Part shown: positions 2,480 through 59,996 of the stretch, piece by piece
How the letters are laid out: each line of letters opens with the position of its first letter
Position numbering within the stretch: position 1 is the stretch's first letter
NCBI GenBank assembly: GCA_017550625.1
Contig: JAFZOL010000039.1
Location: 23,211 to 87,210 of the forward strand
DNA: 64,000 bases
DNA from: Clostridia bacterium
GTDB lineage: Bacteria; Bacillota; Clostridia; Oscillospirales; Acutalibacteraceae
Reading direction: 5' to 3'
The notes under the pieces: model-generated
Databases searched by the model: none
What the model saw: the letters and a program-made list of their open reading frames with translations, nothing else
Told to the model about the DNA's origin: nothing
Program-made: the position numbers and the translations under genes

Positions 2480-3511
2480 ATGGCATACGAACGAAACGAC
2501 GACCTGCCTGACATTTCAGGGATTTTCAATATAGACGACGATATGATCCCCTCGAAGATCATCGAGAAGCCCGTTCAGAGAAAGCCCGTGAGCGGCACGG
2601 GCACCGCGCCCGCGAACAGCCGCAGAAAAGGCCAGAGGCCCGAGCCGATCCTTTTGCAGCAGCAGACGGCGAAGGAAGAGCAGCGCGCCTATCAGGGCAT
2701 CAGCTCCGAGGCGCACAGGCGCACCGTGTCGAAACGCAAGGAGCAGCAGAAAAAGCTGTTCCGCCGCAGGCTCATCCTGTTCGGCGCGGCGGTGGCGCTG
2801 GTGGCGGCGCTCGTGATCGCGATCGCGGTGTGGGTGTCAATAAAGAACCGTCCGCACGTGGTGATCACGCCCGTTCAGAGAGGCAGTTTTTCGGATACCT
2901 ATGAAGCCAACGCCATTATCTATACCGAGGTGACCGACGTCGGCGAGAGCCGCACCTACGCGGTGTTCGTGGACAACCGCTACGACCGCGAGACCTCGGC
3001 GCTCAAGACCGGCCTTGCCGCAGAGATCCGCATCTCGGACGAGGTGACGGTGACCGGGCGGCTGGTGTATATCCGACCGAACGAGGAGACGACCTCGCCG
3101 ATCGTGTCGCTGCTCGTGAGCTTACTGCCCGACACCGACTACGAGCCCTCGAACAACACCGTGATCATGGTGTATCTCGACGACGCGGACTCCGCGCCCG
3201 AAAACGCGACCGTGAAGGTGTTCATCAAAACCAACGAACAGGATAACGTGGTGATCGTGCCCCTCAGCCTCGTGCAGGACCCCGACGGCGAGCCGTATCT
3301 CTGGGTGTATAAGAGCTTCGGCAAGAAGCTCGTGAAAACGCCCGTGGAGCTCGGCTCCCGCTCGAAGGACGGCAACGTGGTCGTCACGAAAGGCGTGTCC
3401 GCCGGAACGCCCATCGTGTGCGAGGGCGACTTCGAAGCGATGGAAGACGGCATGAAAGTGAACGCCGAAGAACAAAGCACGGAATCCGGAGCGGCCGACG
3501 CCGCGCGGTGA
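2480..3511 (+). CDS. HlyD/efflux-adaptor-like membrane-anchored protein (barrel-sandwich/beta-barrel part only)
   Basis: RBS GAAGGAGG lies 9 nt upstream. It has a charged N-terminus, one TM helix (LILFGAAVALVAALVIAIAVWV), then an adaptor-like C-terminus (VKVFIKTNEQDNVVIVPLSLV...YLWVY...KLVKTPVELGSRSKDGNVVVTKGVSAGTPIV). Confidence 0.65.
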   Translation: MAYERNDDLPDISGIFNIDDDMIPSKIIEKPVQRKPVSGTGTAPANSRRKGQRPEPILLQQQTAKEEQRAYQGISSEAHRRTVSKRKEQQKKLFRRRLILFGAAVALVAALVIAIAVWVSIKNRPHVVITPVQRGSFSDTYEANAIIYTEVTDVGESRTYAVFVDNRYDRETSALKTGLAAEIRISDEVTVTGRLVYIRPNEETTSPIVSLLVSLLPDTDYEPSNNTVIMVYLDDADSAPENATVKVFIKTNEQDNVVIVPLSLVQDPDGEPYLWVYKSFGKKLVKTPVELGSRSKDGNVVVTKGVSAGTPIVCEGDFEAMEDGMKVNAEEQSTESGAADAAR

Positions 3512-3531
3512 TCCCCGAAAGGAGAAGAGAT

Positions 3532-5493
3532 ATGAAACTTCGCAGTCTTATCGTCATTCTGGCAGTCATCGCCGTCGTTTGTCTCTTCCCTGCCCTCGCT
3601 TTTGCCGAGGAAACGCCCGCCGAACCGGCGGCGCAGGAAGAGACGGCCGAAATCGCCCCGAGCGATTCGGTGTGCCACGTGCGCGGCGACGTTGACAGGG
3701 ACGGAAAGATCACGGCTTCGGACGCGCGCGCTGTGCTGCGCCTCGCCGTGGAGCTTGACGAGAGCGACGACTACACCGCCGTGGCCGCCGATTACGACAT
3801 GAACGGGAACCTCAGCGCCGGGGACGCGCGCTTCGTGCTGCGCGTGGCCGTGGGGCTCGATCCGAAGCCGGGGCATATCAGCACCGGGCGTGAGACGATC
3901 ACCGAGGCGACCTGTATGACCATCGGCACCGCGGGCAAGCACTGCGCCGTGTGCGGCTGCTATTATGACGTGGGCACCCTGCCCCGCGTGGACCACAAGT
4001 CCGGCGGCTGGATCCTGATCGTGCAGGCCACGTGCTCGTCCGAGGGCTATATGGTGCAGGAATGCGTGTATTGCGGTGAGGAGATCTCGTCGCGCACCGT
4101 GCCGATGCTTGAGCATGCCTACGACGCCGACCACCCCGTTTTCACGGAGGATAACCCCGACTGCACGAAGCTGCAGTATGTGGATTACGTTTGTATGAAC
4201 TGCGGCGCGAAGAAGCACACGCTTCGCTCGCCCTCGAAATATCACGATTATATCTGGATCGAGGCCCTCGCCCCCACCTGCACCACGCAGGGGCTTTTAG
4301 AGCAGCGGTGCAAGCGCTGCGATAAGGCGTCGGGCGAGCTGCAGGCCGAGCCCAGCCTCGGCGGGCATTCCCCCGTGTGGGTGACGGAAACCGAGCCCAA
4401 CGAAAACCTGCCCGGCCACCGCATTTATCGCTGCACGAAATGCCGCGAGGTGATCGAGGAAGAGGATATCCTGTATAAGCCCGGACCTCACCGCTTCGAC
4501 ATGCAGCACCCGGTGTTCCTTGACGAGAACCCCGACTGCACCGAGCTGCAGGAAGTGGAATACACCTGCCTTGACTGCGGCGAAAAGCGCGTGTCGCTGC
4601 GCCTGCCGTCGGCATCCCATAACTATACGTGGTTTGTGATCGACGAGCCCACCTGCACCAAGACCGGCGAGCAGGAAGAGCGCTGCGCGCGCTGCGAGCA
4701 GCTCTCGGGCAAGCCCAACGAGACGCTCGAAAAGCTGCCGCACGAATCCGCCGGCTGGACGCTGGTGGCCGAGGCGACCTGCTCGAGCGAAGGATTGCAG
4801 GAGGAATACTGCGCCGTGTGCGGCGAGCTGATCGGCACCAAGCGTCTGCCGAAGACCGCGCACGCGTATGACCGCGAGCATCCGCGCTTCGTGGACGAAG
4901 AGCCCGACTGCACCAAGCGCCAGAAGGTGGAGTATGCGTGCCTCAACTGCGGCGCGACGGTGCTGGAGGATTGGGAGCCGCTGGACGACCATCAGTTCGA
5001 CTGGGTGGCACACATCGAGCCCACCTGCACAGAAGAGGGCAGGGCGCACCGCGAATGCCTCGTGTGCGGCAAGATGAGCGCCTCGAACCTGACCCGCGTG
5101 CTGCCGCCGCTCGGCCACGACCCCGACTGGGAGCATATGCGCTTCCTTGACGAAAACCCCGACTGCACCGTCGCCCAGAAGGTGGAATGCGTGTGCCTGC
5201 GCTGCGGCGAGACCGTGGAGGTCGACTGGGAGCCGAAGGAAGCCCATGATTGGAAATGGATCGTCGAGATCGAACCCACCTGCACCGTCGACGGCAAGGA
5301 ATACGAGGCCTGCGCCGTGTGCGGCAAGCGCAAGAACGAGAACGTGTCGCGCGTGATCAACGCCCTCGGGCACGACCCCTATTGGGCGACGCTGTATCAG
5401 CCGACCGAGACCGAGCCCGGCCTTGAGATCTATCTCTGCCGCCGCTGCGGCGACGTGCTCGACCAGCGCGAGATCCCGGCGCTGACGCCGTAA
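3532..5493 (+). CDS. secreted dockerin-domain protein followed by ~13 tandem Cys-rich (C-x9-11-CxxC...H) modules
   Basis: ATG at 3532 with RBS AAAGGAGAAG. Signal peptide MKLRSLIVILAVIAVVCLFPALAFA. Dockerin duplicate DVDRDGKITASDARAVLRLAV / DYDMNGNLSAGDARFVLRVAV. Then 13 CxxC motifs, each preceded by PTC/ATC...G and followed by a His (e.g. HDYIWIEALAPTCTTQGLLEQRCKRCD). Confidence 0.85.
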   Translation: MKLRSLIVILAVIAVVCLFPALAFAEETPAEPAAQEETAEIAPSDSVCHVRGDVDRDGKITASDARAVLRLAVELDESDDYTAVAADYDMNGNLSAGDARFVLRVAVGLDPKPGHISTGRETITEATCMTIGTAGKHCAVCGCYYDVGTLPRVDHKSGGWILIVQATCSSEGYMVQECVYCGEEISSRTVPMLEHAYDADHPVFTEDNPDCTKLQYVDYVCMNCGAKKHTLRSPSKYHDYIWIEALAPTCTTQGLLEQRCKRCDKASGELQAEPSLGGHSPVWVTETEPNENLPGHRIYRCTKCREVIEEEDILYKPGPHRFDMQHPVFLDENPDCTELQEVEYTCLDCGEKRVSLRLPSASHNYTWFVIDEPTCTKTGEQEERCARCEQLSGKPNETLEKLPHESAGWTLVAEATCSSEGLQEEYCAVCGELIGTKRLPKTAHAYDREHPRFVDEEPDCTKRQKVEYACLNCGATVLEDWEPLDDHQFDWVAHIEPTCTEEGRAHRECLVCGKMSASNLTRVLPPLGHDPDWEHMRFLDENPDCTVAQKVECVCLRCGETVEVDWEPKEAHDWKWIVEIEPTCTVDGKEYEACAVCGKRKNENVSRVINALGHDPYWATLYQPTETEPGLEIYLCRRCGDVLDQREIPALTP

Positions 5494-11785: not shown

Positions 11786-11791
11786 CGGAGA

Positions 11792-14110
11792 TTATTCCGC
11801 GGCGGGCGCTTCGGCGACAGCTTCGACGGCCTCTTCGACCTTCTCGGCAGCCTCTTCGGCGACGGCTTCGACGGCCTCTTCGACGGCGGCGGGCGCTTCC
11901 TCAACGGCAGCTTCCACAGCCTCGGCAGCCTTTTCGACAGCGGCGGGCGCCTCTTCGACGGCGGCGGGCGCCTCTTCGACGGCGGCAACGGCCTCTTCGA
12001 CGGCGGCGGGCGCCTCTTCGACGGTCTCTTCAGCCTTCGCTTCGGCGGCCTTGGCCTTCGCGATCATTTCGTCGATCGAAAGGACGGCGGGACCTTCTTC
12101 CACGCGGGGACGCTCTTCTCTGGGCTTTCTCTCGGGCGGGGGAAGAAGGGCCTTGATGGAGAGGGAGATCCTCTTCTTCTCAAAGTCGATATCGGTGATC
12201 TTGACCTTCACCTCGTCGCCGATGGACAGCACGTCCTGCGGCTTCTCGATGCGCTCGTTGGCGATCTGGGAGATGTGGATCAGGCCTTCCATTCTCGGGA
12301 AGATCTCGGCGAACGCGCCGAAGGTGGTCATGCGCACGATGCGCACGGTGATCTCGCTGCCGACGGGATAGTCGCGGCGCAGGATCTCCCACGGGTTATC
12401 CTCGATCTTCTTGTAGCCGAGAGAGATCTTCTTCTTCTCGGTGTCGAGACCCTTGATGTAGACCTCAACGGTGTCGCCCACGTTCACGACCTCGCTCGGA
12501 TGCTTGATGCGCTTCCAGGAGAGCTCGGTGCGGTGGATCATGCCGTCAACACCGGGGGCGAGCTCGACGAACGCGCCGTAATCGGTGAGGGACTTGACGG
12601 TGCCGGTATACTTCTGGCCTTCGGCGGCCTCGGCCCAGAACTTTTCTTTGGCTTCTTTGCGCGCGGAGCGGGCTGCGTCACGGATGGAGCCCACGGCCCT
12701 GCGGCGGCGCTTGTCGATGTCGATGACGGTGAACTTGACCTCTTTGTTGAGCATGTCTTCAAGTCTGCCGTCTCTCGGCACGGTGGAAAGCGAAGCGGGC
12801 ACGAAAATGCGGATGCCGTTGGAGAAGACGATGAGACCCTTGCTGATCACCTCAACAACAGTTCCCTCAAGAATCGTCCCTTCCTTGTTCGCTTCAACAA
12901 TACCGTCCCAATACTTCACCGCGTCGTAACGCTTTTTGGAGAGCATGACCGTACCTTCGACGTCGTTGGTCTTCATGATGATGAGATTGAGCTCATCGCC
13001 GACCTTCAGCTCTTTCATGGGATCCGCCGTGGGATCGTCGGAATACTCGTCAAGCGGTACGTAACCGGTCTGCTTTCTGCCGATGTCAACCTGGATCTCG
13101 TTCGGTGCGATATGCATAACGGTACCAACGACTTTCTGATCGTTGTTCATGCTGCTGAGGGATTCCTCAAGAGCCTGCTCGAAGGACAGTTCTTCGGGTT
13201 CTGCAGCGACCTCGACCGGTTCCATGGTCTCGGCGGCTTCTGAGATGTTTTCAAGAATCTCGGACATTGTTTTGTTTACCTCCTTAATTGTACTATCCGG
13301 AGTGGACGCTCCGGCAGTAACTCCGATCGAACGGACGCCAGTAAAATCAATATTTTTTAGTTCTTCGGCGTTCTCGATAAGATACGTTTTCGTCTTCATA
13401 AGGCACAGGTGATACAGCTTTTGGGTGTTGGAGCTGTTGCGCCCGCCGATGACGATCATCATATCATTCTCTCCCGAGAGCTTTTCTGCCTCGGCTTGTC
13501 TGAGAGCGGTAGCGTTACATATTGTATCAAATAATTTCAGGTTTGTACAGTATTTTTTCGCAATTTTTTCGCATTTTTTAAATTCTTTTGCGTCGAAAGT
13601 CGTCTGGCTGACCATCGTGACGGGGGCATTGGACGGCAGGGCGCCGCTTTCGAGCAGGGTTTGGAGCTCTTCGGCCGACGCGACGACAAAATCGCGCGTG
13701 GAAACATAGCTCCGGATGCCCCGCACCTCGGGGTGGGAAGCGTCGCCCGCGATGAGGATGAGGTCGCCCGCGTCCGACGCTTTTTTCACGATCGCGTGGA
13801 TCTTTTTGACGAAGGGGCAGGTGACGTCGGCAAAGGCGATCCCGCTTTGTTCGATCTCGTCGCTCTCATCCCGCGTGACGCCGTGGGTGCGGATGAACAG
13901 GGTGCGCCCGGCGGGGCAGTCGGCGGGCGAAGACACGACCGAAACGCCCCGGTCCTCAAGCGAGCGGATAAAACCGGGGTTATGGATGAGCGGCCCGAGC
14001 GTGCAGGCCGCTTTGCCCGCGGCGAGGTGCGCCCCGAGCAGATTGACCGCGCGGTCCACGCCGAAGCAGAAGCCGGCGGTGGACGCGAGGGTGACGCGGA
14101 CCTCAGGCAT
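11792..14110 (-). CDS. ispH: bifunctional 4-hydroxy-3-methylbut-2-enyl diphosphate reductase (IspH/LytB) / ribosomal protein S1-like fusion
   Basis: N-terminal half is LytB-like ([35 protein letters not shown]). The C-terminal half has four S1 domains ([59 protein letters not shown]). ATG at 14110 with GGAGAAG upstream; the track start at 14143 is a TTG. Confidence 0.9.
11795..12061 (-). repeat. in-frame tandem low-complexity repeat encoding the [13 protein letters not shown] tail of IspH-S1
   Basis: Visible ~21-24-nt periodicity (cgcctcttcgacggcggcgggcg repeated). Translates to ...[48 protein letters not shown]... Confidence 0.85.
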
Positions 14111-14828
14111 CGGTATCTTCTCCGTAGGCTTCGTTCTCTTCAAGGATCTCGGCGGCTCTGAGCTTTGCCATCGCCTCGTGTGCGAGGGCGACGACGCGGG
14201 CGACCACCTCGTCGAACGGCACGCCGGTGGTGTCGACGATCACGGCGTCGTCGGCGGGCCTCAGGGGCGCGATCTCGCGGTGGGAATCCTGATAGTCCCG
14301 CTGGATGATCTCCTGCAGGAGGGTATCGAAATCCACGGGGGTGCCGCGCTGCTCGAGCTCTAAAAAGCGGCGGCGGGCGCGCTCTTCGGCCGAGGCGGTG
14401 AGAAAGATCTTGAGCCCGGCGTCGGGCAGCACCACAGTGCCGATGTCGCGGCCGTCCATGATGCAGTCGTTCTCTTTCGCGAGGGTGCGCTGCAGGTCGA
14501 ACAAAAAGGCGCGCACGGCGGGCACGGCGGACACGTCGGACGCTGCCATGCTGGCCTCGGGCAGGCGGATGGCCTTCGAAACGTCCTCGCCGTCGAGATA
14601 GACGTGCTGCTCGCCCTCGACGAAGCCGAGGGTGATGGTGATCTCGGGCAAAATGGCGGCGACGCCCTCACGGTCTTTCGTGTCGAGCCCGCGGCGGAGC
14701 GCCGCGACGCCGACCGCGCGGTAGAGCGCGCCGGTATCGACGTAAATGACGCCGAGCTCGGCCGCGGCCGCGCGCGAAACGGTGCTTTTGCCGGCGCCGG
14801 AGGGGCCGTCGATCGCAATATCAAGCAT
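14103..14828 (-). CDS. cmk: cytidylate kinase
   Basis: MLDIAIDGPSGAGKSTVSRAAAAELGVIYVDTGALYRAV. RBS AAAGGAG. The 3' end overlaps the ispH start by 8 nt. Confidence 0.93.
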   Translation of the reverse strand: MLDIAIDGPSGAGKSTVSRAAAAELGVIYVDTGALYRAVGVAALRRGLDTKDREGVAAILPEITITLGFVEGEQHVYLDGEDVSKAIRLPEASMAASDVSAVPAVRAFLFDLQRTLAKENDCIMDGRDIGTVVLPDAGLKIFLTASAEERARRRFLELEQRGTPVDFDTLLQEIIQRDYQDSHREIAPLRPADDAVIVDTTGVPFDEVVARVVALAHEAMAKLRAAEILEENEAYGEDTDA

Positions 14829-27077: not shown

Positions 27078-28520
27078 TTAATACGCGACGCCCCACATCA
27101 CCATGTGCTTCGCGGGTTTGCCGCAGCACACGCAGACGTCGGAAAGCTGCTCCTGCGCGAAGGGGATGCAGCGCGAGCCGACGCCCGTGAGCTCCTTGAC
27201 CTTGTCTTCGCATGCCTCTTCGCCGCACCACATGGCCTCGACGAAGCCGTCGCCGTGCGCGGAAAGGTTTTCTTTGATCTCGTCGATCGACGTGCAGCGG
27301 TAGGTGCGGTTCTCCATGTTGGCCTTTGCCTTGTCGTAAAGGCCCTGACCGACGGCGTCGAGCAGACGCGCGACTTCGTTTTCGAGGTCGTCGAGCGACA
27401 CGAAAGTCTTTTCGCGGTTGTCGCGGCGCACGAGCACGCACTGGTTGTTTTCGATATCCTTGGGGCCGATCTCGAGACGGAGCGGCACGCCCTTCATCTC
27501 GTATTCGGAGAACTTCCAGCCCGGGGAGTTATCGGAGTAATCGGCCTTCACGCGGAAGCACTTTTTAAGGCGAGAAACAAGCTCTTCGGCCTTTTCGCGC
27601 ACGCCGGGCTTATGCATGGCGATGGGGATCACGACGACCTGCGTCGGCGCGACCTTCGGCGGGAGCACGAGGCCGTTGTTGTCGCCGTGCGACATGATGA
27701 TTGCGCCGATGAGGCGCGTGGTGACGCCCCAGGAGGTCTGGTGGACGTATTGGAGCTTATTCTCGCGGTCGGCGAACTGGATGCCGAACGCGCGGGCGAA
27801 CCCATCGCCGAAATAGTGGGAGGTGCCCGCCTGCAGGGCCTTGCCGTCGTGCATCAGCGCCTCGATGGCATAGGTGGCCTCGGCGCCGGCGAACTTGTCG
27901 CTTTCGGTCTTTCTGCCCTTGACGACGGGCATGTTGAGCACGTTTTCGCAGAAATCGGCGTAGACCTCGAGCATCTGCTCGGTCTCTTTGACGGCCTCTT
28001 CGGCGGTCTCGTGGATCGTGTGCCCCTCCTGCCACAGGAACTCGCGGGTGCGAAGGAAGGGACGCGTGGTCTTCTCCCACCGCACGACCGAGCACCACTG
28101 GTTATAGAGCTTGGGCAGGTCGCGCCAGGAGTGTACGGCGTTGGCATAGTGCTCGCAGAACAGCGTTTCGCTGGTGGGGCGCACGCACAGCCTCTCCTGC
28201 AGCGGCTCGCTGCCGCCGTGGGTGACCCACGCCACCTCGGGCGCGAAGCCCTCGACGTGGTCCTTTTCTTTCTGCAGAAGGGATTCGGGGATGAACATCG
28301 GCATGTAGACGTTCTCGTGGCCGAGCTCTTTGAAGCGCTCGTCGAGCTGCTTCTGGATGAGCTCCCAGATCGCGTAGCCGTAGGGCTTGATGACCATGCA
28401 GCCCTTGACGCCGGAGTAGTCCACGAGGTCGGCCTTGATGACGACGTCGGTATACCACTTGGCGAAATCCTCTTCCATCGAGGTGATGGCGTCCACCATT
28501 TTTTTGTTATTGTCAGCCAT
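27078..28520 (-). CDS. proS: prolyl-tRNA synthetase (archaeal/eukaryote-like short type)
   Basis: [53 protein letters not shown]...[23 protein letters not shown]...C-terminal zinc-binding CVCCG. ATG at 28520; the track start at 28544 is a TTG. Confidence 0.92.
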
Positions 28521-28548
28521 AGGAAAAACCTCTCTATAAACCAAAAAC

Positions 28549-28845
28549 GGGGATACAAGGCGCCCTCACTTAGGGATTTATATGCCGCAGCGGCGCACTT
28601 ATTTGTGAAATACTTCGTTGCAGGGGTCGGATATCCGTCAGGATCATCCGACCCCTGCGCCTTGTCTTTCGCAAAAACTGCATCCGCTGCGGTGCGATGC
28701 AGTTTTCTCGCCGGCTATTTTTTGTTCGAACAATCTGAACGGCAGGGGATAATCCTGGCGGATATCCCCTGCCGGGCAGGCAGTTCGGGCGGAAAAGAGC
28801 GGCGAAAAACCATGTAAATCCCTAAGTGAGGGCGCCTAAATCCCC
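28549..28845 (-). repeat. nested inverted-repeat mosaic element (long copy) between ftsZ and proS
   Basis: Terminal inverted repeats at 28549-28580 and 28815-28845 share a 22-nt perfect core (GGCGCCCTCACTTAGGGATTTA) plus GGGGAT. Three perfect internal hairpins lie at 28620-28658 (13 bp), 28678-28702 (7 bp, A5/T4 flanks) and 28741-28773 (11 bp). The ends are homologous to 43588-43671 in reverse orientation. Confidence 0.85.
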
Positions 28846-28862
28846 GTGATATTGGTTTTTGC

Positions 28863-29951
28863 TTATTTGTTCTTGAACATATTGAAGATATCGGAGATAT
28901 CGTCGTCGAGCGAATTTTCTTCTTTCTGGGGCTTGGCCTGAGGCATCTGGACGATGACCGGCTCTTCCTTCTTCTCCTGCGGGCGGGGGTTGTTGCTGGT
29001 GCCGAAGCCCGTGGCGATGACGGTGACGACGATCTCGTCGTCGAGCTGCGGATCGGTGGTGACGCCGAAGATGATGTTCGCGTCGTCGGACGCGGCGTTC
29101 TTCACGATCGTGGCGGCGGTGTCGACGTCGTCCAGCGTGATGTCGGCGGAGCCGGCGATCAGGATGATCACGCCCTTGGCGCCCTGGATGGTGGTCTCAA
29201 GCAGCGGGCTGGAGATCGCGGCGTTGGCGGCAGCCTCGGCCTTTTCTTTGCCCTGCGCTCTGCCCACGCCCATATGCGCGTGGCCCGCGTCCTTCATGAC
29301 GGAGGTGACGTCGGCGAAGTCGAGGTTGATGATGCCGGGGATCTTGATGAGCTCGGCGATCGACTTGACGCCCTGACGGAGCACGTCGTCGGCGACCGAG
29401 AAAGCGTTGAGCAGGGTGATCTTTTGATCGGAGACGAGCTTCAGACGCTCGTTCGGGATCACGATGAGGCTGTCGACGTGCTGGGCGAGCTCGGCGATGC
29501 CGGCCTCGGCCTGCTGCATGCGGCGCTTGCCCTCGAACTCGAAGGGCTTGGACACGATGCCCACGGTAAGGATGCCCTTATCTTTGGCGAGCTGCGCGAT
29601 CACGGGAGCCGCGCCCGTGCCGGTGCCGCCGCCCATGCCGGCGGTGATGAACACCATGTCGGTGCCCTGCAGCACTTCGTTGATGACCTCGAGGCTCTCT
29701 TCGGCGGCGCGCTTGCCGATGGCGGGATCGCCGCCGGCGCCCTGCCCGAAGGTGGCCTTTTCGCCGATCTGGATCTTGGTGGGGGCCTTGGACCCGATCA
29801 GGATCTGCTTATCGGTGTTCACGGCGATGAACTCAACGCCCTGCACGCCCGAATCGACCATGCGGTTGACGGCGTTTCCGCCGCCGCCGCCCACGCCGAC
29901 GACTTTGATCTGGGTCACAAGATCATATTCAGTAGACATTTCAAATCCCAT
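28863..29951 (-). CDS. ftsZ: cell division protein FtsZ
   Basis: [51 protein letters not shown] at 7 nt. Confidence 0.96.
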
Positions 29952-30091: not shown

Positions 30092-31153
30092 TTACCAGTC
30101 CTCGTCCTCGTCTTCGTCGTCATAGTCGTAATCGTAGTCGTCATCATAATCGTAATCGTAATCGTCATCGTCGTAGTCGTAGTCATAATCGTAGTCGTCA
30201 TCGTAATCGTCGTCCGCGCCGTCTTCGCCGGTCTGTTCGCCGTTTTCGGCCGCCTCGTAGGAGGCGCGCTCCTCAGGCGTGAGCGACTCGAGGAATTTCG
30301 CCCTTCGCGCGGCCTCTTTCGAGGCTTCGATCGCGTTCTGGCTGCGCACGATGGCCTTGTTGCCGTAGGTGAGGTCCACGACCTGCTTGGGGGCGTTGGC
30401 GCCGTTCTTTTTGAGCACGTCTTCGATCGTGGCCCTGCCGAAATCGAGCTTATCTTTGATCTTCGAAAGGCTGCCGAAGCGGACGTTGATGAAGAAGTTC
30501 ACCTCCACCACAACGTCGGTCAGGTCGTTGAGGTCGTAGGCCGTGACGTTCGTGAAGCCGTGCGCCTCGAACGCCGACACGAGATCGGTGAGGTGGCCGA
30601 GGAACTCGTCGTCCTCGAAGCTTACAGTCTGGCCGGGTACGGCCTCGGTGACGTTGGAGCCGTAGACGACGGCCGTGTAGTCCGCGATGCGCGAAACGCC
30701 CGTCTGCAGCACCTTGCCCTCGGAATTGAGCAGCACGTAGCCGCCGCCGGTCTCGACCGCGAGGGTGGCCTTCGTGTATTCCACCGTGATGACGACTTCG
30801 TCGGGGATGTGGCGTTTGACGGTCACCTTGCCGATATAGGGCAGCGCCTTTTTGATGCGAGCCGCGACAGCGTCGCCGTTGAGGAGCAGCAGGCTTTCGT
30901 CCTCCTTGATCCCGGCGGCGGCCTCGATCTCGGCGTTCGAATAGCGGATCGCCTCGTTCACGACGGTGACCTTTTTCGCCTTGAAGAAGAAAATGGAAAA
31001 CACCGCCCCGATGATCAGGATGAGGAGCATGAGCAGCAGGCCGAGCCGGATCTCGGCACGGCGTTTTTTCTGCTTGCGGCGGTCGGCGCCGCTTTTCATG
31101 CGTTCGGTTTTCGTGCGCTCGACGTTATTATCGTTTTTCTTTTCCCGTTTCAT
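30092..31153 (-). CDS. ftsQ: FtsQ/DivIB-type cell division protein (POTRA) with acidic Asp/Tyr tail
   Basis: Basic N-terminus, one TM helix, then the POTRA-like KKVTVVNEAIRYSNAEIEAAAGIKEDESLLLLNGDAVAARIKKALPYIGKVTVKRHIPDEVVITV. Positioned between murA and ftsZ. Confidence 0.8.
   Translation of the reverse strand: MKREKKNDNNVERTKTERMKSGADRRKQKKRRAEIRLGLLLMLLILIIGAVFSIFFFKAKKVTVVNEAIRYSNAEIEAAAGIKEDESLLLLNGDAVAARIKKALPYIGKVTVKRHIPDEVVITVEYTKATLAVETGGGYVLLNSEGKVLQTGVSRIADYTAVVYGSNVTEAVPGQTVSFEDDEFLGHLTDLVSAFEAHGFTNVTAYDLNDLTDVVVEVNFFINVRFGSLSKIKDKLDFGRATIEDVLKKNGANAPKQVVDLTYGNKAIVRSQNAIEASKEAARRAKFLESLTPEERASYEAAENGEQTGEDGADDDYDDDYDYDYDYDDDDYDYDYDDDYDYDYDDEDEDEDW
30095..30217 (-). repeat. coding microsatellite-like GAY/TAY repeat (DDDYDDDYDYDYDYDDDDYDYDYDDDYDYDYDDEDEDEDW)
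   Basis: Direct reading of gtcgta/gtcata hexamer runs at the 3' end of ftsQ. Confidence 0.9.
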
Positions 31154-43587: not shown

Positions 43588-43671
43588 TTTTAGGTGTCCT
43601 CACTTAGGGATTTACATGGTTTTTTGCAAATAAGTGCGCCGCTGCGGCATATTAATCCCCAAGTGAGGGCG
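43588..43671 (+). repeat. short copy of the inverted-repeat element seen at 28549-28845
   Basis: TTTAGGTGTCCTCACTTAGGGATTTACATGGTTTTTTGCAAATAAGTGCGCCGCTGCGGCATATTAATCCCCAAGTGAGGGCG. The 15-bp arms are CCTCACTTAGGGATT / AATCCCCAAGTGAGG. It aligns end to end with the reverse complement of the two ends of the 28.6-kb copy. Confidence 0.85.
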
Positions 43672-43679
43672 ACGTTCGC

Positions 43680-43707
43680 TTGACTTTTGCCGCGATTGGG
43701 TTATAAT
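43680..43707 (+). promoter_or_regulatory. sigma-A-type promoter of the mrp-like gene
   Basis: TTGACT-16 nt-TATAAT, immediately after the repeat element. Confidence 0.6.
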
Positions 43708-43739: not shown

Positions 43740-44552
43740 ATGAGCTGCAACAACGACTGCGCGAACTGCGCCTCGAAATGCGACAAGGCCGATTTCCGCG
43801 AGCCCCAGAACGCGATGTCCGATATCAAGAACGTGATCGCCGTGGTATCCGGCAAGGGGGGCGTGGGCAAGAGCCTCGTGACTTCCCTTCTCGCTGTGTA
43901 CGCGCGGCGCGAGGGCTTTGAGACCGCCGTGATCGACGCCGATATCACGGGGCCGTCGATCCCGAAGGCTTTCGGCATCCGCGCGAAGGCCGAAGGGAAC
44001 GACCTCGGCATCATGCCCGCCTTCACCGCCACCGGCATCAAGCTGATGAGCCTCAACCTCCTGCTCGAGGACGAGGGCGCGCCCGTGGTGTGGCGCGGAC
44101 CCGTGATCGCGGGCGCGGTGAAGCAGTTCTGGACCGACGTGGTGTGGAACGACGTGGACTATATGTTCGTGGACATGCCGCCCGGCACCGGCGACGTGCC
44201 GCTGACCGTGTTCCAGAGCCTGCCCGTGAAGGGCATCGTGATCGTGACCTCCCCGCAGGAGCTCGTGGGCATGATCGTGAGCAAGGCCATCCGCATGGCG
44301 AACCTGATGGACATCCCGGTGCTCGGCGTGGTGGAGAACTTCTCGTACTTCGAGTGCCCCGACTGCGGCAAGCGCCACGAGATCTACGGGCCGTCGCACC
44401 TCGACGAGATCGCGAAGGAGTTCGGCATCGGCCTGACCGCCCGCCTGCCCGTCAACCCGAAGTTCGCCGCCGCGGCGGACAAGGGCATGCTGGAGCTCGC
44501 CGACGTGCCGGAGATGGAGGAATTCGCGAAAAAGCTGCTGGAGATCAAATAA
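43740..44552 (+). CDS. Mrp/NBP35/ApbC-family iron-sulfur cluster carrier ATPase
   Basis: N-terminal Cys cluster (CNNDCANCASKC), deviant Walker A VVSGKGGVGKS, and CPDCG near the C-terminus. ATG at 43740; a GTG at 43731 is also possible. Confidence 0.88.
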   Translation: MSCNNDCANCASKCDKADFREPQNAMSDIKNVIAVVSGKGGVGKSLVTSLLAVYARREGFETAVIDADITGPSIPKAFGIRAKAEGNDLGIMPAFTATGIKLMSLNLLLEDEGAPVVWRGPVIAGAVKQFWTDVVWNDVDYMFVDMPPGTGDVPLTVFQSLPVKGIVIVTSPQELVGMIVSKAIRMANLMDIPVLGVVENFSYFECPDCGKRHEIYGPSHLDEIAKEFGIGLTARLPVNPKFAAAADKGMLELADVPEMEEFAKKLLEIK

Positions 44553-59363: not shown

Positions 59364-59918
59364 TTGGAGTATGAAGTGATCAGGAGCAATCGGAAGACGA
59401 CGGCGCTGCAGATCAAAGACGGAAAGCTCATCGTGCGCGCACCGTTCAGGGCGAGCGACGCCCAAATACAGCGCTTCGTGGAGAATAACCGGCGCTGGAT
59501 CGAAACGCACCTCGAAAAGGCCGCGGCACGGGCGAAGGCCGCCGAAAACGTGCCGAAGCTGACGCCCGACGAGATCGCCGCACTCGCGAAGAAAGCCGCC
59601 GAGACGATCCCGCAGCGGGTGGCGTTTTACGCGGCGAAGGTGGGCGTGACCTACGGCAGGATCACGATCCGCAAACAGAGATCGCGCTGGGGCAGCTGCA
59701 GCGCAAAGGGCAACCTCAATTTCAACTGCCTGCTCATGCTCGCGCCCCCGGAGGTGCTCGACGGCGTGATCGTGCACGAGCTGTGCCACCGGAAGGAAAT
59801 GAACCACTCGGCGCGGTTCTACGCCGAGGTGCGGCGGGTACTGCCGGACTACGACGCGCGAAACAAATGGCTCAAAGAGAACGGCGAGACACTGATGGCA
59901 AGGCTCGGAGAAAAGTGA
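59364..59918 (+). CDS. YgjP/DUF45-like (M48/SprT-type) zinc metallopeptidase
   Basis: HELCHRKEMNHSARF is the HExxH motif. N-terminal EVIRSNRKTTALQIKDGKLIVRAPF fits the YgjP layout. TTG start at 59364 lies 7-8 nt after GGAAGGAGGAAAG. Confidence 0.8.
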   Translation: MEYEVIRSNRKTTALQIKDGKLIVRAPFRASDAQIQRFVENNRRWIETHLEKAAARAKAAENVPKLTPDEIAALAKKAAETIPQRVAFYAAKVGVTYGRITIRKQRSRWGSCSAKGNLNFNCLLMLAPPEVLDGVIVHELCHRKEMNHSARFYAEVRRVLPDYDARNKWLKENGETLMARLGEK

Positions 59919-59920
59919 GA

Positions 59921-59996
59921 TCCGTCCTTCGGACGGGTGAAATCGCCTGCGGCGGTGAAATCCCCGAGGGGTGAAATCCGCCTGCGGCGGGTGAAG
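59921..59996 (+). repeat. array of four short stem-loops, each followed by GTGAA(A/G)
   Basis: TCCGTCC-TTCG-GACGG GTGAAA / TCGCC-TGCG-GCG GTGAAA / TCCCC-GAG-GGG TGAAA / TCCGCC-TGCG-GCGG GTGAAG. It lies directly after the stop codon at 59916-59918. Confidence 0.8.

Follow-up and report, generated by a model that had tools for sequence, protein, structure and literature searches.

The 342-nt spacer between ftsZ and proS in the window (the whole 64,000-nt stretch of DNA analysed here) very probably holds one copy of a non-coding, MITE-like, non-autonomous DNA transposon of ~280 bp, bounded by perfect 23-nt terminal inverted repeats (TIRs). The repeat family to which this copy belongs is previously undescribed, its hosts being uncultured rumen and gut Oscillospiraceae, and its preferred targets are the apices of GC-rich palindromes with A- and T-tract flanks, that is, of intrinsic terminators downstream of genes. 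The odd spacer is thereby explained as a recent insertion in a terminator loop and not as a regulatory leader.

An insertion in the loop of the ftsZ terminator

Both genes that flank the spacer, ftsZ (28863-29951) and proS (27078-28520), lie on the minus strand, and their products are identified as FtsZ and an archaeal-type ProRS with the support of the Pfam domains of proteins from public contigs that are identical to them. Searching for the exact FtsZ sequence brought up two public contigs. One of these, L040, matches the window at 99.5% identity and shares its 342-nt spacer, whereas the other, L041 (GCA_016280285.1), encodes an identical FtsZ and shares ~97.5% DNA identity with the window (97-98%), with an ftsZ-proS spacer of only 62 nt. 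Alignment and junction analysis showed that L041 is without exactly window positions 28558-28837. On the ftsZ strand, the L041 spacer reads ...CACGGGGAT-TTTGT-ATCCCCGT-TTTTTGG..., in which the hairpin ACGGGGAT-TTTGT-ATCCCCGT followed by TTTTT is a canonical intrinsic terminator (8-bp stem, 5-nt loop, T-tract; z = -3.7). The proS ATG is located ~25 nt beyond this terminator, the 62-nt spacer consisting of terminator and RBS. In the window, the 280-bp element, A-GGCGCC...GGCGCC-T, splits the loop of the ftsZ terminator at TT^TGT. The parts of the element and the adjoining host sequences are as follows.

28558..28837, minus strand: full-length element, 280 bp, exactly the bases missing from the empty allele L041; E = 4e-89 in an nhmmer search with the family profile
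28815..28837, minus strand: left TIR, AGGCGCCCTCACTTAGGGATTTA on the minus strand, then ...CATGG
28558..28580, plus strand: right TIR, AGGCGCCCTCACTTAGGGATTTA on the plus strand, then ...TATGCC
28704..28809, minus strand: arm 1, an imperfect hairpin of ~105 nt in the MFE fold, with the 28741-28773 hairpin as its apex
28585..28692, minus strand: arm 2, an imperfect hairpin of ~108 nt from the MFE fold and covariation, with the 28620-28658 hairpin as its apex
28674..28706, no strand assigned: AAAACTGCATC...GATGCAGTTTT hairpin, an alternative pairing that is perfect in the window copy only
28840..28847, minus strand: 5' half of the stem of the host ftsZ terminator (minus-strand sequence ACGGGGAT), which in L041 is contiguous with the other half
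28543..28554, minus strand: 3' half of the host ftsZ terminator stem with its T-tract, ATCCCCGT at 28554-28547 and the T-tract at 28546-28543 (with the stem T at 28547, TTTTT)

Read from left to right, the element lies on the minus strand, in the sense direction of ftsZ and proS. The preliminary description, which was made from the letters of the window, had recognized a 342-nt spacer with inverted repeats, and this is borne out: the TIRs are perfect over 23 nt and 96% complementary over 27 nt (28558-28584/28811-28837). It had placed the TIRs at 28549-28580 and 28815-28845, of which the core stands, but the outer GGGGAT/ATCCCC match (28547-28554/28840-28847) has to be given back to the host as the terminator stem, because the element sits in the loop of the terminator seen in L041. 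With the 280-bp element, the window copy has zero target duplication, with at most 1 nt of ambiguity, and thus no clean 2-bp repeat.

The three hairpins with perfect stems that had been listed between the TIRs are all present, at 28620-28658 (13 bp), 28674-28706 (11 bp including the A/T flanks) and 28741-28773 (11 bp), and the first and third are related as proposed, 28629-28649 being 90% complementary to 28747-28767. For the central hairpin, described as terminator-like, the perfect stem is real but is no feature of the family, since it is perfect in the window copy only: other copies have CTGCTTC...GGATGCAA at this position, the MFE fold puts these bases in arm 2, and in the family they pair with the right-end region as part of the long arm. 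The idea that the element carries its own bidirectional terminator (A5-hairpin-T4) was rejected on the same observation; a terminator-like apex is found in one subfamily only (Faecousia-type, see below).

The only ORF in the 280-bp element is 44 aa long, has a TTG start and lies on the plus strand, and the window, a dcw-cluster region, contains no evident transposase. Rfam searches at gathering and at permissive thresholds (to E <= 10), covering the window and five other loci, gave no match at the element, in agreement with the earlier failure to recognize any named RNA family. The earlier remark that many Firmicutes have a T-box at such a position does not apply here: because the empty allele consists of terminator and RBS, neither a T-box nor another leader is ancestral at this site. 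A T-box leader or other cis-regulatory RNA of proS was therefore rejected, given no Rfam match at E <= 10 and a 62-nt spacer in L041 without the element.

The short copy at 43.6 kb

The window contains the 17-mer core CCTCACTTAGGGATTTA in exact form four times, twice at 28.5 kb and twice at 43.6 kb, against 0.05 expected, and the family profile detects two copies only in the window. The second of these is a short copy, which had been placed at 43588-43671 and read as the two ends of the element fused to each other in the orientation opposite to that of the ftsZ-proS copy; this organization holds, with the limits now set at 43592-43674.

43592..43674, plus strand: short copy, 83 bp, left end (~36 nt) fused to right end (~45 nt), flanked by TT/TT
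43680-43707, plus strand: promoter-like TTGACT-16-TATAAT, near-consensus, starting 5 bp past the right end of the short copy

The promoter-like site is upstream of an Mrp/ParA-like gene (ATG at 43740). This adjoining site and the divergent genes place the short copy in a divergent promoter region, not in a terminator. Of the two readings offered earlier, a deletion derivative or the ends without cargo, the short copy is best taken as an internal-deletion derivative, because it retains a right-end segment whose pairing partner is missing. It is present also in L042 (662-743), with 6 positions different, while the 73 nt of spacer upstream of it have 1 difference; the window and L042 strains encode an identical alpha-galactosidase protein, and the L042 short copy is nearer to the family consensus TIR.

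A repeat family of uncultured Oscillospiraceae

We scanned one genome per species for the 17-mer core and obtained 19 genome matches, 13 of which were dismissed as chance matches in unrelated phyla, without the GGCGCC extension and without the interior. Real relatives were found in two MAGs, one of Faecousia sp. (L002, L006, L009 and L016) and the other the rumen 'Ruminococcaceae' RUG14159 (L001 and L017). With a pattern of 20 specified bases, 20 further loci were recovered from metagenome contigs, giving a total of ~30 copies in 26 loci (6 in the two MAGs, 20 in metagenome contigs). Identity to the window copy is 90-97%, and the flanks are unrelated, so that the proposed count of copies in related genomes did reveal many, at unrelated loci. 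The same TIR, with the family consensus R-GGCG(C/A)C-CTCACTTAGGGATTTA, is present in all copies.

The copies fall into two subfamilies, window-type and Faecousia-type, which are colinear (278-281 nt) and have in common only the TIRs and a few short motifs. Three size classes can be distinguished. Internal-deletion forms of 81-122 bp comprise the short copy of the window and L016, and the standard form is ~280 bp long. A form of ~470 bp, seen at five loci (L023, L024, L027, L037 and L039), contains an extra hairpin-rich module of ~190 nt at the junction of the two arms. This module (L023 5776-5965; L027 1101-1291) comprises about six small hairpins with perfect stems, is nested in the three-way junction and was never seen alone, and the ~470-bp variant has itself spread.

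Strains differ in the presence of the element, with empty alleles for both the ftsZ site and the L036 site, and such presence/absence among strains of one species indicates recent movement. By its features, the repeat is a MITE, a known kind of element: it is short and non-coding, has TIRs, and occupies many unrelated loci with presence/absence polymorphism. Many contigs break off within the element, as a multi-copy repeat would lead one to expect. In L035, the left flank is that of the L032 site and the right flank pairs with L039, and in L002 (3400-3700) the flank at the left end of the element, on the right side of the plus strand, pairs with L009. Both were dropped as examples of a copy with two flanks, because their flanks belong to different loci; the repeat thus causes chimeric joins and contig breaks in MAG and metagenome assemblies.

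Outside these genomes and contigs, blastn searches of plasmids with the element and with a 37-nt end gave nothing meaningful, a scan of viral contigs gave 0 matches, and a full-text search of the literature for the TIR sequence returned unrelated primer matches only.

Target sites and gene context

Twelve independent insertion sites were reconstructed, including three pairs of contig-end copies that share a half-stem in their flanks; several of these reconstructions join flanks from different contigs. Looking for target-site duplications, as had been suggested, we found a 2-bp direct repeat (TG, TT, AA or TC) in 10 of the 12 sites, one of them confirmed by an empty site. The exceptions are the window copy and L038; to accommodate a 2-bp duplication, each would have to lack one terminal base of the element, and the window copy additionally needs a one-T difference in the T-run of the empty allele. 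In 8/12 sites, the element is inserted within, or at, the apical loop of a strong hairpin composed of A-tract, stem and T-tract, and in L033 the insertion point is 3-4 nt to the side of a terminator hairpin.

Flanking proteins led to three further orthologous empty sites. In L043 and L044, the site of the L036 copy is empty and reads AAAAGCAGCTC-CGCT-GAGCTGC-TTTTT between convergent genes; the filled L036 allele is longer by 283 nt, and its junction microhomology, TGAG, corresponds to a 2-bp TG duplication around an A...T element. The TGA stop codon of a histidine-kinase gene (L036 3014-3016) is located within this terminator loop; it is rebuilt from the duplicated TG and the first base of the element, A, so that the histidine-kinase protein is unchanged. 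In L045, the counterpart of L038, the same hairpin (GCCGCGGGAG/CTCCCGCGGC) is present with a diverged loop, and L046 and L047, the counterparts of L032, have an intact hairpin, GAACGGCTGA-TTCG-TCAGCCGTTC-TTTT. Two other definitions of the boundaries were tried and discarded: a 3-bp duplication with ends at GGCGCC fails at L036, and an integron attC-like GTTRRRY boundary fits few junctions only.

Coding frames around the copies were called by a GC3/GC1>GC2 rule, which gives the correct frames for ftsZ and proS. A neighbouring gene could be called for 34 arms, and 25 of these face the 3' end of a gene, typically 14-35 nt from the stop codon, and these gene ends are faced by left and right ends of the element about equally (12 vs 13), with no orientation bias.

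A conserved three-way junction

In both subfamilies, the element folds into a three-way junction in which a TIR helix of ~23-26 bp closes two imperfect hairpin arms of ~100 nt each. As RNA, the whole ftsZ-proS spacer folds at -189.7 kcal/mol (z = -15.5 vs shuffles); the fold z of a Faecousia copy is -14.1, compared with the same -15.5 for the window copy. The pairing of arm 1 is maintained across copies and subfamilies.

Base pairs were counted on a stated structure, RNAalifold having given just one hairpin on the alignment, which contains partial rows. In eight full-length copies from the two subfamilies, 92.6% of cells are paired, compared with 39-47% when the partners are slid. The covariation that the preliminary description proposed to look for is present: changes on both sides occur in 38/112 pairs, against 6-13 in the slid controls and 29.0 +/- 2.6 in shuffles, none of which (0/500) reaches the observed 38. 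Within the window type alone, seven pairs have double changes. The sequence of the element thus changes by paired compensatory substitutions, not codon-wise. As the covariation comes from essentially two lineages, it speaks for maintained palindromy, not function. Mismatches of the G-U and A-C kinds are balanced (37 vs 27 cells; 18 vs 16 columns), without strand bias, so both strands support the fold to the same degree. This lack of strand asymmetry and the orientation-neutral insertion together point to a constraint on the fold that is DNA-level or strand-symmetric, not one imposed by a single-strand RNA function.

Alternative explanations

The reading of the spacer as local terminators plus a fortuitous repeat at two loci has practically no probability left and is refuted: a genuine host terminator at the site is all that speaks for it, whereas the four core matches far exceed expectation, ~30 homologous copies with 90-97% identity exist elsewhere, and the boundaries are precise when compared with the empty alleles. 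We consider it highly improbable that the element is a functional structured RNA (a 3'-UTR or terminator module, a leader of proS, or an sRNA that merely looks repetitive). Its location in the transcribed ftsZ-proS junction, the very stable fold with covariation, and the position of most copies just downstream of genes would all suit an RNA, but the element is absent from a strain with ~97.5% identity whose spacer is terminator and RBS, it occurs in both orientations relative to the upstream gene, and its G-U and A-C mismatches are balanced. Furthermore, no promoter-like site was found in the ftsZ-proS spacer, there is no Rfam or T-box match, and divergent genes flank the promoter region that harbours the short copy. 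The initial preference for a DNA-level element, MITE- or REP/BIME-like, over a conserved RNA is accordingly upheld by the copies, the empty sites, the duplications and the strand-symmetric fold.

Within the DNA-level readings, a palindrome of the REP/BIME/REPIN type, spread by a RAYT (HUH, single-strand) transposase that would act on the hairpin fold in single-stranded DNA, appears improbable. This possibility would account for an extragenic, strongly palindromic mosaic with nested hairpin modules, for hairpins kept by compensatory changes on both strands, for the window copy without a clean target duplication, and for targets that are themselves hairpins. However, the 2-bp duplication in 10/12 sites, verified by an empty site in one case, argues against it, as do the long perfect TIRs, which pair with each other and are not self-folding REP units of 20-40 nt with a GTAG-type head; in addition, no RAYT gene adjoins any copy in the loci examined, although this is a weak test. 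A remnant of an IS200/IS605 element, a PATE or an omega-RNA was likewise ruled out, by the perfect TIRs, the 2-bp duplication and the absence of a match to Rfam HEARO.

Proposed mobilization and relation to known elements

We propose that the MITE-like element is mobilized in trans by a DDE transposase that would cut its target with a 2-bp stagger and prefer near-palindromic or hairpin targets. Neither an autonomous element nor a transposase with these TIRs was found, and plasmids and viral contigs were without related sequence; a cognate IS would be expected to be bounded by RGGCGCCCTCACTTAGGGATTTA. In the transcript or in extruded DNA, the TIRs would pair, and the host terminator stem would re-form on the 23-bp TIR helix with the original U-tract directly after it. 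Because the paired TIRs would rebuild the host stem in this way, the insertion is predicted to be nearly neutral for ftsZ and proS, with ftsZ termination and proS read-through largely preserved, which would explain why it is tolerated beside an essential gene. Such neutrality may also be why terminator loops accumulate copies, and the loop preference could partly reflect the survival of harmless insertions instead of targeting. The conserved fold might have a role at the DNA level, for example, in transposase or cruciform recognition or in maintenance of the palindrome. A bolder version, which we regard as possible but rather unlikely, is that of a structure-recognizing 'stealth' transposon that is drawn to the apex of whatever terminator hairpin it meets, in cruciform or single-stranded form, with the three-way-junction fold selected both for mobility and for host termination, the TIR helix rebuilding the split terminator.

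Besides IS30, other families that make 2-bp duplications, among them IS630 and the IS5 subgroups ISL2 and IS427, may come into question. The closest described parallel to the window family is IS30-like behaviour: IS30 attacks its targets with a 2-bp stagger, produces 2-bp repeats and uses near-palindromic hot spots, inserting at the central 2 bp (PMC9333248). The likeness, to the 2-bp repeat in 10/12 sites and the hairpin apex in 8/12 sites of the window family, is one of behaviour, no candidate IS having been recovered. IS1630 of Mycoplasma fermentans, a member of the IS30 family, duplicates a whole inverted repeat, whereas the window family duplicates 2 bp. Insertion within extragenic GC-rich palindromes, at or near the symmetry axis, is shared with IS1397, ISKpn1, ISPpu9, ISPpu10 and ISRm22, of which ISPpu9 and ISPpu10 have 2-bp direct repeats and ISRm22 inserts on the palindrome axis (PMC1525189). 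Those elements, however, are autonomous, with one conserved REP sequence as target, whereas the window family is non-autonomous and targets hairpins of unrelated sequence, which suggests either that structure or composition is recognized or that selection acts once the element has inserted.

Correia/CREE elements of Neisseria, ERIC, RUP and the SPRITE elements of S. pneumoniae are, like the window family, short, non-coding, TIR-bounded and multi-copy (PMC10969869, PMC3184786). They also resemble it in their intergenic location with a bias to gene 3' ends, their long hairpins, their size variants arising by internal deletion or insertion, and their nesting; SPRITE is especially similar in its terminator-like structure at convergent gene ends. 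Unlike these elements, to which no sequence relation was found in the literature search with the TIR or in the plasmid searches, the window family sits inside pre-existing host terminator hairpins and is not merely terminator-like, has a three-way junction conserved with covariation between subfamilies, and resides in uncultured Oscillospiraceae. With REPIN/BIME, it shares an extragenic palindromic doublet, a long hairpin, compensatory changes that preserve pairing and a mosaic organization, but differs in its 2-bp target duplication, its long perfect TIRs, its size of ~280 bp and the lack of a known RAYT association.

Significance

What goes beyond a routine MITE is the repeated insertion in the loops of unrelated terminator hairpins and the conservation of the three-way-junction fold between subfamilies. 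The ends, size classes, fold and target preference are now defined for a new Oscillospiraceae repeat family, the copies of which provide strain-level presence/absence markers. For metagenomics, the family matters as a repeat that fragments MAG assemblies and makes chimeric contigs. The ftsZ-proS site is a natural experiment on the tolerance of a terminator hairpin for a structured insertion of 280 nt in its loop. If the preference for hairpin apices is enzymatic, the transposase would be an integrase guided by structure, which might find practical use.

Other features of the window and related contigs

In-frame tandem repeats of 12 nt and 21 nt are located inside minus-strand genes of the window (30093-30230 and 11787-12049). 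One of them is Tyr/Asp-rich (GAC/GAT/TAC/TAT codons, minus strand) and lies at the 3' end of the gene that immediately precedes ftsZ, a POTRA (FtsQ-like) gene, and the other is GC-rich and lies at the 3' end of a 783-aa ORF (11792-14143). Four divergent direct repeats of ~375 nt (4119-5286, plus strand; 61-71% identity) within a 691-aa ORF (3418-5493) indicate a protein of repeated Cys-containing domains. Among structured RNAs, a Gut-1 RNA (RF01706) was detected in the window at 59913-59982 on the plus strand (56.1 bits, E = 2e-8, above the gathering score), and a weaker Gut-1-like match (29.6 bits) was found in L023 (197-268, plus strand), a metagenome contig that also bears the repeat. In addition, the Faecousia contig L002 carries a ZMP/ZTP riboswitch (RF01750, 60.5 bits) at 2072-2152 on the minus strand, ~1.3 kb from a copy of the repeat.
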